Shown here one piece after another: positions 40,431 through 49,244 of a stretch of DNA of 64,000 nucleotides. Origin of the DNA: Podarcis gaigeae (taxonomy: Eukaryota). Location of the stretch: the NCBI GenBank assembly GCA_964106915.2, contig OZ066914.1; one strand, given 5' to 3'. Each line of letters begins with the position of its first letter. Position 1 is the stretch's first letter. The translations under genes and the position numbers were made by a program. The notes beneath the pieces are model-generated. The model had not been told where the DNA came from and searched no databases. It saw nothing but the letters and a program-made list of their open reading frames with translations.

Positions 40431-40629
40431 TGGACATCTTTGCCAAAATGGGGTCAACTAAAATTAAGACTGTAAAAAATGAGAAACTGTCAGAAATAAT
40501 AATAAAAGAACAATCAATTCATTCCTAGCCTCAGCTGCCATGTCCTGTCAATCTAATGTCAATTTCCCTCCCTTTTGATTGCTTCAGTGGTGGCAGGTAG
40601 TTTCCTGTAAAGAACTGCTTCATCAGTCA

Positions 40630-41318
40630 ACATGGAAACCAAAATGCTTGTTTACAAAGCTATTGTACTACCAACCTTACTATATGCTTGTGAAACATGG
40701 TCCACTTATAAACGCCATCTCCAACTCCTCGAAAGATTCCATCAACCGTGTCTCCGAACAATTTTGCACATCGCTTGGGAAGACAGGCAAACTAATATCA
40801 GTGTACTGGAAGAAGCAAAGATCACCAGTGTTGAAGCAATGATTCTTCAACATCAACTTCATTGGACTGGTCATGTTGTACCGATGCCTGATGATCGTCT
40901 TCCAAAGCAACTACTCTATTTCGACTTAAAAATGGAAAGTGTAATGCTGGTGGTCAACAAAAGAGGTTTAAAGACTGTCTCAAGGCAAATCTAAAAAAAT
41001 GAAGTATAAACACTGACAACTGGGGAACACTGGCCTGAGAGCACTCCAGTTGGAGAACAGCCTTTACCAAAGGTGTTGTGGGCTTTGAAGACACTCGAAC
41101 TCAGGATGCAAGGGAGAAACGTGCTAGGAGGAAGGCATGCTTAGCAAATCCACACCATGATCAACTCCCACCCGGAAACCCATGTCCCCACTGTGGAAGG
41201 ATGTGTGGATCCAGAATTGGCCTCCACAGTCACTTATGGACTCATTGTTAAAACTGTGTTTATGGAAGACAATCTTACTCGGCTGCAAGTGATCGCCAAA
41301 GAAAGAAGAAAGAAAGAA
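40630..41318 (+). mobile_element. 5'-truncated RTE-clade LINE (not Bov-B)
   Basis: TKMLVYKAIVLPTLLYACETW...QLHWTGHV..MPDDRLPKQLLY, then a frameshift. A C-terminal C2H2-like CPHCGR...GLHSH motif and a GAA-rich tail follow. Confidence 0.93.
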
Positions 41319-44380: not shown

Positions 44381-45242
44381 GGGCACAAGATGTGGGGCAC
44401 AATACAGTGGTACCTTGGATTAAGTACTTAATTCGTTCCGGAGGTCCGTTCTTAACCCGAAACTGTTCTTAACCTGAAGCACCACTTTAGCTAATGGGGC
44501 CATCCACTGCTGCTGCGCCGCCGGAGCACGATTTCTGTCCTCATCCTGAAGCAAAGTTCTTAACCTGAGGTACTATTTCTGGGTTAGCAGAGTCTGTAAC
44601 CTGAAGCGTATGTAACCTGAAGGGTATGTAACCCGAGGTACCACTGTATACAGATGGAGGAATGGGAAAAACTATGGAAGAAAGAGATAAAATTTACAGC
44701 ATGTGTGGCGATTAAAGAAAACTATATGAAAATGATGTATAGATGGTATCTAACTCCGGTTAAATTAGCAAAAATGTACAAAACTAAAGAAAATAAGTGT
44801 TGGAAATGTAAAACCATAGAAGGTGCATTTTTTCATATGTGGTAGGGTTGCAAAATTGTTAAGAATTATTGGGAAATGATTTATAATGAAATGAAGAAGA
44901 TGTTTAAAATGACCTTTGCCAAAAAAAACCAGAAGCTTTCCTATTAGTTATTACAGGAATGGATTTACCAAGATCACAAAAGAACTTGTTTATGTATGCA
45001 ATGTACACAGGTTAATACATTGGCAGGGTTTTAAGAATATTTTTAATTTTATTATGAATGGACAATAATTAATTCAAATGGTTAAAACTTTATAATGGAC
45101 ATGTAGTACCTTGATATACAATGTAACCAAGGAAGGAAATAGCAGGAAGGCAATCTGTTTTGTTTTGTTTTAGTTTTTATTGTTGTTTGTTTTGTTTTTG
45201 TTATTGTTGGAAAATTAATAAAATGTTATGAAAAAAAGAAAG
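44381..45242 (+). mobile_element. 5'-truncated L1 LINE
   Basis: ORF2 C-terminus ENYMKMMYRWYLTP.KLAKMY...CWKC...G.FFHMW*GC (zinc knuckle), AATAAA and A-tail. 15-bp TSD AAAGAACAGAAGGCA at 44366-44380 and 45243-45257. Confidence 0.92.
44405..44646. mobile_element. Tc1/mariner-type MITE, 242 bp
   Basis: TIR CAGTGGTACCT...AGGTACCACTG with TA on both sides. Subterminal TAACCTGAAG repeats. Confidence 0.93.
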
Positions 45243-47349
45243 AAAGAACAGAAGGCAAAGAGAAGAATAAATGGGCAGTTTTCACAATGGTGGGATGTAG
45301 GAAGTGAGGTCTCCCAAGGAGCTCCATCTCCATTGGAGCCAATGTTTTAAACTTTTTCATAAATAATCTGAAATTATGGGTGAGATGAGAGGATCAAGAT
45401 TGGTGCCTTCAACAAAGTCCATAAAGTATATGAAGAGGACTGGGGATGGAAGAGGAACAGATAAGGAAAGAGCAATGTAAATACAACTTGGGAAGGCTGA
45501 AGCAGAGGTGGACACTAAATAAGGAATTGGTAGGATAATAGGTGCTAGATAGACCCATGGATAGTTGCACTGGGTTAGAAGTAGAAGTCAAAATCTAAAT
45601 AACAGTTTGAATGAAGCAGCATGGGTAATTTGTTTTAATAGAGAAAGAGAAGGGAAACAGAATTAGAGAGGGAAAGGAACCTGTTTCAAGATGAAGGGGC
45701 AGAAGGGGAACATTACAAACATAAGAAGAGCCCTGCTGGATGTAGACCAAAGGAGCATCTAGTCCAGAATTCTATTCTCATAGTGACTAACCCAGATGCC
45801 TGTGCCTCATGTTGCACAGGTTGTTTCTTACAATTTAATAATGGCTGCTTCTTCCTAGTTTGCAGGTAAATTGCAGGTTGTTGTCAAGAAACAGAGAGGC
45901 CAAAGGTTGTGCTATGGGATTGAGGGTTTGCTCGGTGACCAACCCTCTCCTTCTAAGGCAAAGTAAATAGTTTGAAGGCAAGAATATAGAGAAATGCTTA
46001 AAATGGACTTTACTTTCTTGGCAACATTTCCCACCCTGTTGGAGAGACAGGAAAGGGAAGACTCCAAAGGATCCCAGACAATCATCTCACTGCATAGGAA
46101 GCTGCCATTGATTTATTTTACTTATTGTTGGTCTTGTGGCCATTCTTTTCGTAAGTCATTGGTGAGATTTGATAGTGTGTGCATGTGTTTAAAAGTACAT
46201 ATGAGAAAAATTCCCTGGGCCTCATGTGGGCCTTAAATGCTGTTGGACACAACAAGGAATGCAAAGCAATCTATAAATCCATATGTAGATATGTTTGTGG
46301 AGTGCATAACATGCTTTTCACTCAATCACAGCTGCTCCATTTGGTGTGCAGATGTATTTGTGTTTTAATTTGCAAACCTTCAAGCCTGCAGAGATCTTGA
46401 CTTGTGTGTGTGTGTTTGTGTGTGTCTGTTTGTGTGCGTGTGTGTAGGTGCATTCTTTTCAAGGTATTATCTCCCCTTTGCTTAAGAATGGCTGGGAACT
46501 TGGAGACAAAGCAAAAGAACATTTCATCTAGTTATGTAATAAAGCCAAATTGTTGATTCTCCTGATCCTCCTGACAGGATAGAACCTCCATAAAGGGAAT
46601 GTTCTATAATTAAAACCAACTTCTTCCAAGTACTCGGGACACTGTTCACGTTGGCAGTCTAAGATCTAAGAGGCTATAATTAAGGCAGTGGTTTATTGGT
46701 TCAGCTTCTCCCCATCCTCAAAAATATGTCTTTCTCAAGCGAGTGGATTGTTTAGAAAGAGGGTGGTTTCTGCATACAGCCTAGCAGAAGGTCTGGAATC
46801 CTTGATAGCTTTCCAGTTGTTCTATGCGACTCTTATTATGATAAAATAGCATTCTAAATTCATTTAACAAGAACGTGAAGGATAATTTCCTCAACTGATG
46901 TGCTTCTCTGACTTATTCTCCCCCCCTTCTTTGTTTTGAATTACAGCAAAGTGCAGGTTGTTAATTTGTCTAGCACAAACACAAAGCCTAATTTCATTAG
47001 GAGGGATCCTTTGGCGGGGCAAAGACATTGGAGCTTGTGAATATTGCTGTCTAAACTTAGGTATCCTAAATTGGAAATGATGTAGAATGCTGTGGTTTGT
47101 AACAGAAGCTCCTGGTAGAGTATTTTGTAGCAGTCATGGAACAAGTTGCTAAATCAAAGAAGACTACCAGGAGTGTTCCAATCAGGTTTGCCTCTAAAAT
47201 GTGCCCCTCTAGGTCTCAGCAGCTTAGGCCTCTGCTTTCTTCTCCCCAGTTGCTGCTTGGTAGTGATTGGAGGTGCATAAATCCCCCTTTCTCCTCTATC
47301 GAAATCACACTATTTTCCTCCCAAAATGGGATAATTCTCAGCTTCTTCT

Positions 47350-49015
47350 TTTTTTTATAATAATTTTTATTAAGGTTTTCCAAATTAAAACAAATCAAAA
47401 CAAATTAAATCCAATCTATAAACTTTTTGCCAATAACTAGGACTTCCCCTCCCTACCCCCTCTTGTGTTCCAAATCTTCCAAATAAGCAATTAAATTCAA
47501 CAAGTTCTTATCCCCAAATTACACTCTTCATCAATAACTCAATTTATCCAAATTCCCATCCCCTAAGATCGATCTATACCCTTCCACGAGTTTCCCCCTT
47601 TCAAACATAGTACAGATGGAAATAAGATAAATATGAATAGTAATTTTACAGCCTTTGGATTCCAAGTTTCCCTCCCCTCTTTCCCCTTTGCGTTTCACCT
47701 ATCCCTCCACTTCTAATATCTTCCTGGAGTTCCCACATTACACTATGTCCCTCAGGTTCTTTGCCAGTCTTTAATTATGGATGTCCAATCATAGAAGGAG
47801 TCTATCAAATAAGGGTCCATTTCTTCTATCCAGGTTTTTATATCCAGGAGTAAAAACTCCAATTTTGTATCCATAAGCTTGTCAAACCTGAATATCCCAA
47901 ATGTTCCCCCAGTTCTGTCCAGTTCTTGTTATTTCCTTGTTCTTGTCAATCATTCTCCTCCTTTTTATTTCTCTGTTCTCCCACAGAAATGTTCTTTTTC
48001 CAAAAGTTTCTAGTGTCTCTGCAGAGGCTTGTTATTCATGGAGCAAAGCATTGCATCATGTTCCTTTCATTTTCCAACAAATAGTTCCATTGTTTCCTGT
48101 AGTGTGTAGACCTCTGTAGACAAAATAATGTTCCATTCCTGCAGTTTCCCAGGAGATTAAGAGTTCCATTCAACTGTTCAAGTTTCCTGTGAAAAACACA
48201 TGCAATATCCCTCGGCTCCTCTAGGTGGATTGCAGTAACAAAGTTCCCTTCCACCAGACCAAATAGCTTGTTGACCAGTATTTAAAACAGTTTATATTCA
48301 ATTTATAACAAATATAACCGGCAAAGTCCTCATAACAAAGTCTCTATTTTAATCTTCCTTTTTGACAGCTCTTTGACAGCTGTCAAAACCTCCATCGCTT
48401 TTCTCCAGGCAGTTTCACGAATTGCTCCAGGGATTCCGGGGGGGGGGGGGGTTGCTTTTTTTTTTTTTAATTTCCACTTTTCTCCTCCAGCTCAATCTTA
48501 TAATTTTCCCTCGCGAAGTTGCTGATTCGGCAAGATAAGGTTACACTCGATCTTAGTTGTCCAGTCCTTTGTTTTGGCTCTTCTACAATTTAGGGGTGGG
48601 CTGACTTCCTTTTTTCCGCCTCCCCCGTTCGCTCCGAATTTTAAAAATTTATCCCCCTTTTTTTAGTCCATATTCCAATTACTCACGGGTTCTTCTTTAG
48701 AGCCGAATTTTCAATAGAAGAAGTCAGCGCTCTCCGCCGGATGGCATGCGGCTGCGCTCGGCAGGGATAGCAGAGAACTCAAAGCACCACGCTTCTCCCC
48801 GGCACCCGATCCGTAGCCTTTAAAAAGGCTCCTTCACGAGTCGGGAGAGCGCTAACGGTGCCAGCCGAGTCTCCATGTCCACGGCCTCCTCTGGCCGTGG
48901 TTTTTGAGGGTCCCCGCATCGCCGGTGCGGTAGGGCCCAACCCCTGCCAAGCCGGCTCCCTCCGGAGCTCGGAGGGAGCCCGCCATTCGGCGATGGCGCC
49001 GACCCGGAAGTCCTC
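47350..49015 (-). mobile_element. Full-length non-autonomous L1-type (HAL1-like) retroposon, 1.67 kb
   Basis: Exact 17-bp TSD AATTCTCAGCTTCTTCT at 47333-47349 and 49016-49032. 5' GAGGACTTCCGG start, CpG-rich leader, AATAAA plus A-tail, and no RT. Confidence 0.88.
48600..49015 (-). promoter_or_regulatory. CpG-island-like internal promoter region of the retroposon
   Basis: One of the most CpG-dense tracts in the window. ETS-type CCGGAAGT near 49004-49011 and ATGGCG/CGCCAT YY1-like cores. Confidence 0.55.
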
Positions 49016-49244
49016 AATTCTCAGCTTCTTCTGGGCCAATTGGATTCAAGCCAGACTCCATCACATCTTTGAGTGCATCATGAAATCTCAATCTATAAAC
49101 CGGCTTGTTGGGAGGGGAGAGGCTGCCGACTTCCTGGTAGGTGAGTCACTGGTGCTTACAGGAAGGGGCAAGTAGCCTGGAAAGTTGGTGTGGTGCAAAC
49201 ACACTGCCAGGAGCAGTGGATTGGCTCTACCACTGCATCCTCTT

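Follow-up and report, generated by a model that had tools for sequence, protein, structure and literature searches.

The window, a stretch of 64,000 nucleotides from the genome of Podarcis gaigeae, carries on its minus strand a full-length, ORF-less, L1-derived retroposon of 1.66 kb (47350..49013), which runs from GGACTTCCGG at 49013 to an A7 tail at 47356-47350. It is bounded by a 17-bp target-site duplication (TSD), AATTCTCAGCTTCTTCT, identical on the element's 3' side (47333..47349) and on its 5' side (49016..49032); two extra bases, 49014-49015, lie between the latter copy and the start shared by the family. On the same minus strand, a CpG-rich leader (48721..49012) is followed by the conserved blocks AACCCGTGAGTA (48680..48691) and AAAAAGGAAGTC (48603..48614), the remnant of a reading frame (47722..48197), a GGAAGTCC motif of the L1-type 3'UTR (47440..47447) and, downstream of a T-rich tract, an AATAAA polyadenylation signal (47366..47371). 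The AACCCGTGAGTA block resembles the consensus of a splice donor. Outside the element, a 5'-truncated L1 fragment on the plus strand (44642..45242) retains ORF2 residues ~1062-1180 and a tail. A conserved palindrome, TTTGACAGCTGTCAAA (48372..48387), is a candidate binding site, as its core is what PMC6158717 gives as the canonical TGIF1 homeodomain site.

Insertion site and copy family

The original prediction, made from the window alone, had described an exact 17-bp TSD around a recent insertion that should be checked for polymorphism. Contigs assembled from three sequencing runs (X3, X4 and X5) link 47332 directly to 49016 and carry the 17-bp TSD once, which confirms both the duplication and the recency of the event. 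X3 bears the same organism label as the window and comes from a different sample and study, and X4 and X5 represent two other organisms; run X1 listed no empty allele. Depths summed over these contigs are not a measure of copy number. Given the empty site in X3, the insertion at 47350-49013 is polymorphic, a result that concerns this locus alone.

The element is one of a young subfamily of some 480-490 copies, as subfamily-specific 22-mers match 478 times near the 5' end and 492 times near the 3' end, with no matches for control 22-mers in the same count. It is thus multi-copy, and the genome-wide search proposed with the prediction recovered copies of the same length and ends, all 40 scored matches spanning 1.59 kb at 97-100% identity. 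Full-length copies dominate: all 30 loci chosen by their 5' end alone are complete, and 8 of the 87 3'-end matches on contigs C1 and C2 have no 5' partner, so that about 90% of copies are full length. These eight, together with one from C3, are 5'-truncated copies of 248-801 nt. TSDs of at least 10 bases flank 59 of 61 copies, with a mode of 17-18 and a family range of 12-25 bp, and the target sites are pyrimidine|purine-rich, with T two bases before the cut in 38 of 59 and A/G-rich sequence after it. Many independent insertions with TSDs and A tails show that it amplifies as a separate family. A search of literature listings found no description of it; Repbase, Dfam or subscription journals could hold one.

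L1-type ends and the probable copying machinery

The L1-type 5' end was correctly predicted, as the element starts GACTTCCGG like the full-length L1s of this genome, which begin G/AGACTTCCGG or GGGCTTCCGG. The expected CpG-rich leader of about 400 bp is also present, with 36 CpG in the first 400 nt and an observed/expected ratio of 1.04 versus 0.22 for the window. Leader nucleotides 13-300 align with the 5'UTR of a full L1, L062, at z 7.5, a score reached by none of 200 shuffles, and with eight of ten L1 leaders at z of at least 2.7; six control leaders in the same test gave z -1.3 to 2.4, the highest being L217 at 2.4. By this measure of homology the 5' region derives from an L1 5'UTR, and the leader is likely to hold an internal promoter. 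Other GACTTCCGG..ATGGCG starts, searched as candidates for a parent L1, proved to be one short member of the clade and otherwise repeats without relation to it.

In an alignment of 26 sequences the leader folds into a covarying structure, of which we rely only on helices 1-8 because helices 9-17 differed between two structure strings. Helix 4 is a conserved hairpin (48957..48977, minus strand), and helix 8 a covarying one (48879..48900, minus strand) in which five of seven pairs changed on both sides and 98.9% of cells are paired across the 26 sequences. Common descent of the sequences, or repair of hairpins by template switching, can also produce such covariation.

The 3' end was proposed to mirror that of the neighbouring L1 at 45130-45242. 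This holds for the architecture but not for the sequence, since the profile match to that fragment has an E value of 0.17 and the fragment has no GGAAGTC motif. The 3'UTR of L062 matches better (E 0.0042), and the motif, as GGAAG(T/C)(C/T), occurs in 28 of the 33 L1 loci whose ORF2 end was located.

Potential helpers are present in the same genome, where intact young L1s have ORF2 frames of 1238-1261 aa and ten L1 ORF1 copies are 99-100% alike, eight of them without stops. No close parent was found among forty L1 loci. In blastn, 20 L1 loci match the element over its last ~60 nt only; a profile of the whole clade has no match under E 0.004 in L1s; and, of 17 further ORF1-bearing L1 loci, none carries the palindrome upstream.

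The claim that the element is not tRNA-derived stands, as ARAGORN found no tRNA genes in it and Rfam no small-RNA matches to E 1. The sense strand has ten runs of T4 or longer, from position 188 onwards, which speak against Pol III transcription and, together with the L1-type leader, lead us to infer transcription by Pol II. Pol II would transcribe the element from its L1-type leader, L1 ORF2p would supply the copying enzyme in trans, with which the insertion hallmarks fit, and the folded leader may act in transcription or in ORF2p capture. That a non-L1 LINE (Tx1, RTE/BovB, CR1 or L2) mobilises the element instead is improbable. The close match of sampled L1 tails over ~60 nt only would suit such a partner, but the AATAAA signal with an A tail, the 12-25-bp TSDs, the pyrimidine|purine target sites, the L1-type start and the 3'UTR motif all point to L1; moreover, partners of RTE, CR1 and L2 normally have microsatellite tails in common with their LINE.

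Sister subfamilies and loss of the reading frame

In agreement with the prediction of broken reading frames only, all 30 copies of the window's subfamily are without an ORF; most contain no ATG-started sense frame longer than 46 aa, and the longest stop-to-stop frame is 81-85 aa. No tblastn match of L1 ORF2 under E 0.6 was found in the element, and Pfam gave nothing above cut-off for its frames or for the ORFs of its sisters. These older sister subfamilies are 1.8-2.05 kb long and carry one ORF of 180-215 aa, of which 47722..48197 is a decayed remnant with its start codon lost. Against L154, the remnant has 16 indels, 12 of them not multiples of three, and a profile of the sister ORF matches the window copy, with X at stops, at E 8e-5 and the intermediate L135 at E 4e-33. 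The guess that an ORF had decayed here was therefore right: the middle of the element is what remains of a frame still intact in sister subfamilies.

The sister ORF is under purifying selection, with an omega of 0.547 (~0.55) and a likelihood ratio of 40.4 versus omega 1 (p 2e-10); controls gave 0.90-1.09 for 5'UTR triplets and 1.08 and 0.88 for shifted frames. In the ORF-less lineage, omega in the ancestral frame is 0.91, and after its loss the ORF decays neutrally. Nucleotide gap counts in ORF and UTR were clear for close pairs only and are not relied on. All 21 ORF-less rows form one ladder-like clade (SH-aLRT 100 in both trees) with the window copy at its tip, and intermediates form a graded series of 97, 95, 85, 76 and 71% identity. 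The trees carry no outgroup, and the direction of change, ORF loss, is drawn from the decayed remnant and the omega contrast. Since L134 is placed differently in the two trees, leaders may have been exchanged or an ORF lost a second time. The ORF-less lineage continued amplifying for ~0.49 substitutions per site after the loss and is the commoner form, accounting for 22 of the 27 palindrome-bearing loci taken consecutively on C1.

This series also bears on two simpler origins. A one-step internal deletion of a current L1 family would give a bipartite element with L1-type sequence at both the 5' and the 3' end, as seen here. The element is nowhere close to a sampled L1, however, its matches to 20 L1 loci being confined to the last ~60 nt, and a middle that is a decayed ORF with graded intermediates contradicts a single step; we regard this origin as very improbable. 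Even less credit is due to the idea that the copies are processed pseudogenes of an often-retroposing host gene. A CpG-island-like 5' end, an A tail and TSDs mark retrocopies too, but the leader is homologous to L1, the subfamilies follow one another as a ladder marked by shared diagnostic changes, and no conserved host protein was among the matches and no conserved host mRNA lies behind the element. The 150 genome matches listed for the ORF are uninterrupted or fragments, none shown spliced; a lineage-specific, intron-containing parent gene retains a small probability. Very probably, then, the element represents an L1-derived, protein-free retroposon lineage that arose from ORF-bearing relatives and likely uses the L1 enzyme.

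The nature of the ancestral ORF is a separate matter. Neither its sequence nor its fold identifies it as L1 ORF1p: hhalign gave probabilities of 0.3-1.4%, equalled by 3 of 60 block-shuffled controls, and it had no match to human ORF1p structures (PDB sequences), which the lizard ORF1 profile matches at 5.7e-7. In AlphaFold models of two sister-ORF alignments an N-terminal helix alone is predicted with confidence, which is low beyond residue ~55, and a Foldseek search with the second, low-confidence model, which found no match, is uninformative. The Transposase_22 search suggested with the prediction had no match in the genome and is likewise uninformative here, since it also misses a genuine lizard ORF1. 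The omega of the sister ORF is far above that of L1 ORF1 (0.10 and 0.14, for the two of five L1 pairs that were computable). An apparent relationship to ORF2 was rejected, as the strong match stemmed from two wrong rows, L179 and the L144 neighbour ORF, and vanished without them.

We put about even odds on the ancestral ORF being a heavily eroded L1 ORF1. It occupies the place of ORF1, after an L1-homologous leader; the long helix at its start, predicted with confidence, resembles the ORF1p coiled coil; and weak colinear matches to ORF1p fall in the coiled coil, at the beginning of the RRM and in a CTD motif (WEFPEGISFMY versus LEYPIGSTFKY). These observations speak against an L1 parasite whose ORF is an orphan or captured sequence with its own function between L1 UTRs, in which case the clade would not be HAL1. 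That reading is a serious one to which we give slightly less than an even chance: no significant ORF1p match emerged by Pfam, HMM, hhalign, PDB sequence or fold, the 12 matches of the sister-ORF profile in 1.84 billion proteins are all full or partial family members, and conservation in the ORF peaks at a C-terminal RASDVRxPG motif, which the lizard ORF1s do not show.

Relation to known non-autonomous retroposons

HAL1 (half-L1) of mammals is described as L1-derived and ORF1p-encoding, with no ORF2, its own 5'UTR, an A tail and independent families (PMC5753468; PMC5786205). The lineage studied here is likewise L1-derived, has no ORF2, has its own 5'UTR and A tail, and amplifies as an independent family, a layout shared by its ORF-bearing sisters. 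HAL1 differs in its ORF1p, as no protein is encoded in the window's lineage and the 180-215-aa ORF of the sisters cannot be recognised as ORF1p, which makes the clade a candidate HAL1 at most. Where it treats ORF1-bearing non-autonomous LINEs such as HAL1, a 2018 Repbase survey argues that they need their protein (PMC5786205).

ORF-absent bipartite LINEs, including RIME, NARTc, Bov-A, RTESINE and Vingi-1_EE derivatives, are similarly non-coding, with the 5' and 3' ends of a LINE (here by distant homology), probable Pol II transcription and dependence on an autonomous LINE (PMC5786205). In the survey, such derivatives are confined to RTE, Ingi, Vingi and R2, and internal deletion is given as their origin (PMC5786205). 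In contrast, the 1.66-kb element described here is L1-clade in both leader and tail, and became non-coding by gradual ORF decay rather than by a deletion joining the ends.

Other long non-coding retroposons are SVA of hominids, a Pol II-transcribed, L1-moved composite of Alu-like, VNTR and SINE-R parts of ~2 kb, and Sadhu of Arabidopsis, described as having no recognisable promoter (PMC4494074). The present element differs from both in its L1-derived leader, and from SVA also in having none of the three parts. With Pol III SINEs (tRNA, 7SL or 5S heads, including Sauria SINE) it shares a non-coding nature, mostly full-length copies and a succession of master lineages, but it has no small-RNA head, is four to five times longer and contains many internal T runs. 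What is new is that older sisters keep a selected ORF while a single ORF-less clade, with the window copy at its tip, decays it neutrally.

It is tempting to speculate further, although we think the following rather unlikely as a whole. Perhaps these L1 parasites are a lacertid clade with an orphan protein family other than ORF1p, which one branch dropped to become a long Pol II 'SINE'. The covarying 290-nt domain at the 5' end of its RNA, which may close on the GGAAGUC motif in the 3'UTR, would then capture L1 ORF2p without translation, and still-active ORF-bearing sisters may supply protein in trans. If true, the parasites would form a chain of three tiers, and the route from a coding to a non-coding retroposon would have been observed directly.

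Such an element, likely from a wall lizard, would be one of few protein-free parasites of LINE-1 yet described, with an origin that can be traced step by step. Its coding to non-coding series, conserved folded leader and ~90% full-length copies make an old question testable, namely, what lets an RNA take L1's enzyme in trans without translation or an Alu domain. In addition, work on the population history of lacertids gains ready markers in the polymorphic copies flanked by long TSDs.

Boundaries, abundance and age

The element (47350-49013, minus strand) lies between two identical 17-bp direct repeats at 47333-47349 and 49016-49032, as the original prediction had it, and runs from a 5' start, GGACTTCCGG, at 49013 through a T-rich tract and an AATAAA (47371-47366) to a terminal A7 tail. 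Its leader is as CpG-rich as had been proposed, with 36 CpG in the first 400 nt and an observed/expected ratio of 1.04, against 0.22 in the window. In the majority of 30 copies there is no sense frame above 85 codons and no ATG-started frame above 46, in keeping with the broken frames first described, and searches with ARAGORN and Rfam gave no small-RNA head, which agrees with the proposed non-tRNA origin.

The element is not single copy. A genome search returned 2062 candidates, and all 40 that were scored align over at least 1.59 kb at 97-100%; 22-mers specific to the youngest subfamily matched 478 times near the 5' end and 492 times near the 3' end (controls, 0). Of 61 copies, 59 have their own target-site duplication (TSD) of 12-25 bases, with a mode of 17-18, and the target sites of TSD-bearing copies are pyrimidine-rich before the cut and purine-rich after it, the pattern expected of the L1 endonuclease. 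The mean difference among the 30 closest copies, a set selected for that closeness, is 0.96%. On contigs C1 and C2, 8 of 87 matches to the 3' 22-mer lack a 5' partner; these eight, together with one on C3, have been truncated at the 5' side to 248-801 nt, and about 90% of the young subfamily is thus full length. For scale, one report on the green anole gives about 40% of polymorphic L1 insertions as complete (PMC5389967).

The insertion is recent, as had been predicted: contigs from sequencing runs X3, X4 and X5 join 47332 to 49016 with a single copy of the 17 bases, an empty site. X3 comes from another sample and study than X1 under the same organism label, and X4 and X5 bear two other labels; X1, a possible source of the genome, holds contigs ending inside the element, with no 47332-49016 joint listed. 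Since the same runs also hold contigs at least 90% alike to the element's interior, the lineage is common to the relatives. Four young-subfamily copies no more than 40 kb apart on one strand (G000:C2:11297636-11336503, in the genome searched) probably reflect segmental tandem duplication. A 576-nt member of the wider clade, bounded by TSDs (L197; G000:C1, ~137345450-137346030, minus) and seen as a single copy, consists of the first ~550 nt of leader and a short tail; it may have been polyadenylated early or may represent a shorter family.

L1-type ends and a folded leader

The genome's full-length autonomous L1s begin G/AGACTTCCGG or GGGCTTCCGG, and the claim of an L1-type 5' end is upheld both by such start bases and by the leader beyond them. 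With the first 12 bases dropped, the next 288 nt of nine members of the clade (ORF-less copies and sister subfamilies with one ORF) were compared with L1 leaders using 200 shuffles, giving z 7.5 for L1 locus L062 (0/200 shuffles as high) and at least 2.7 for eight of ten L1 leaders (the other two, 0.5 and 1.7), with six control sequences at -1.3 to 2.4. Among the 33 L1 loci whose ORF2 end could be placed, 28 have a 3'UTR motif, GGAAG(T/C)(C/T), ahead of the T-rich tract, and the clade's aligned column carries it as GGAAGTC or a transition variant. Both ends are L1-type, through a homology that is distant: blastn matches to L1 are limited to the last ~60 nt, and no close parent was found among 40 L1 loci. 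Candidate helpers are present as intact ORF2 frames (1238-1261 aa) and as a set of ten ORF1 copies that are 99-100% alike, of which eight contain no stops.

In the clade and most L1s the 5' start GACTTCC (49006-49012) is the reverse complement of the 3'UTR GGAAGTC (47441-47447; a second GGAAGTC lies at 48603-48609, ~nt 405). Of the 41 clade rows aligned, 39 have a 3' motif able to pair with GACUUCC if G-U is allowed, and L1 copies L064 and L076 combine GGCTTCC with GGAAGCC and GGAAGTC, respectively; the two heptamers may pair end to end over 7 bp or may be an ETS-type site.

Other repeats were noticed alongside. The neighbouring L1 fragment at 44642-45242 appears to have undergone internal deletion in addition to 5' truncation, because its ORF2 match stops at about residue 1180 and GGAAGTC is absent. 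A search with GACTTCCGG..ATGGCG gives 138 genome matches, mostly to another group (L191-L220) whose L1-start-like piece is GC-rich and 100-600 nt long, lacks TSDs at that start and is often followed by CTGGTAACCCTA, which we take to resemble a hAT-type terminal repeat. At 40611-41310 a frame of 127 aa occurs with a GAAA-repeat tail, presumably resembling an RTE/BovB-type LINE at its 3' end.

The leader is structured. Its first 314 nt fold with z -6.5; seven of nine clade members lie at -3.7 to -7.3 (the other two, -1.6 and -2.2), compared with -1.1 to -3.4 for five L1 leaders and -2.4 to 2.7 for the remainder of the element. In a consensus fold of 26 sequences, 19 of 80 pairs are altered on both sides; helix 8 (48879-48900) has five of seven pairs so altered and 98.9% of cells paired, against 40-50% in slid controls, a comparison that only helices 1-8 entered as in the consensus fold. 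Because related sequences may pass such controls without selection, we go no further than to infer a function for the fold. The core of a conserved palindrome, TTTGACAGCTGTCAAA, is a candidate TGIF1 site, having the form given as canonical in PMC6158717.

Pol II would likely start at the L1-type GACTTCC; Pol III transcription is unlikely, since ten T4+ runs occur from position 188. The polyadenylated RNA would then likely be taken in trans by L1 ORF2p, and target-primed reverse transcription would account for the TSD, for the A tail and for the 5' truncation seen occasionally. Of the original reading as an L1 parasite, the insertion marks, L1-type ends and descent are borne out; Pol II and L1 ORF2p we infer.

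A decayed frame with intact relatives

The palindrome has 1537 genome matches, a count that includes some loci on both strands (control, 0). These loci form a series whose identity, across the full length of 1.62-1.78 kb, falls through 97, 95, 85, 76 and 71%; more distant ones, of 1.8-2.05 kb, share leader, TSDs and tail and carry one 180-215-aa ORF ending in RASDVRxPG. Counting consecutive distinct loci on C1, 22 of the first 27 are ORF-less and five ORF-type. ORF-bearing forms are in places recent too: L121 and L153, which occupy different sites and each have a TSD of their own, are 99.3% alike.

For the sister ORF, omega is 0.547 (11 copies, 182 codons; likelihood ratio against omega 1, 40.4, p 2e-10), with controls of 0.90-1.09 for 5'UTR triplets and 1.08 and 0.88 for shifted frames. 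None of the 55 pairwise Nei-Gojobori values reaches 1, though they lie well above the 0.10 and 0.14 of L1 ORF1. Across ten ORF-less copies the ancestral frame gives 0.91. With its stops written as X, the window copy is matched by the ORF profile at E 8e-5, and L135, a basal ORF-less copy, at E 4e-33; the window remnant (48197-47722, minus) no longer has a start codon and, relative to locus L154, is broken by 12 frame-shifting indels. The middle of the element is a defunct gene whose relatives survive, much as the guess of a decayed ORF had it. A bipartite element made by deletion was rejected, the middle being a decayed ORF.

Searched against 5.8 billion and 1.84 billion proteins, the sister ORF matched only nameless family members and a Podarcis fusion. 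The latter is a Podarcis muralis protein prediction (P0016, XP_077778988.1) whose final ~60 residues are those of the sister ORF, fused to an Env-like frame; it may reflect exonisation or an annotation artefact, and it favours a wall-lizard setting for the family. By hhalign, the sister ORF reaches a probability of 0.3-1.4% against lizard L1 ORF1s, a level that 3 of 60 shuffled controls also attain; the lizard ORF1 profile matches human ORF1p structures at E 5.7e-7, and the sister profile gave no match to them. Structure models are confident for the N-terminal helix only. Descent from L1 ORF1 is an even bet; in its favour are the ORF's position, that helix, and motifs, weak but colinear, at the start of the RRM and at the CTD.

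Known systems and the loss of the frame

The element works in like manner to HAL1, SVA and bipartite non-autonomous LINEs. HAL1 encodes ORF1p (PMC5753468), whereas the window subfamily encodes nothing; the proposed likeness to HAL1 therefore holds for manner of working, not for membership, to which the ORF-bearing sisters may have a claim. Non-autonomous LINE forms without an ORF are, as far as one source describes them, known only from RTE, Ingi, Vingi and R2 (PMC5786205), and another sets SVA and Sadhu apart from the HAL1 and bipartite classes as long non-coding retroposons (PMC4494074). Literature searches gave no account of the family, though Repbase, Dfam or supplements may contain one. 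Bao and Jurka (2010) may describe non-coding HAL1 derivatives.

Trees were built from 41 elements, 15 near-duplicates of 56 being left out; L142 and L156 lacked a clean end. The 21 ORF-less rows all fall in a single clade (SH-aLRT 100) in both the whole-element and first-800-nt trees. L166, a single broken copy placed among the ORF-bearing ones, has a frame that still matches over its entire length and was not counted as ORF-less. The ORF-less clade is pectinate, with depths of 0.09-0.49 substitutions per site (window copy, 0.488). The position of L134 differs from one tree to the other, suggesting leader exchange, and a second ORF loss is possible. L131 and L134, 98.2% alike, make up a 1.69-kb ORF-less subfamily whose leader groups with the young lineage and whose whole element is basal, again a possible leader exchange.

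The earlier interpretation is supported and extended: from trees without an outgroup, and with the direction given by the ORF remnant and the omega contrast, the history of the family would be one ORF loss followed by a ladder of ORF-less forms.
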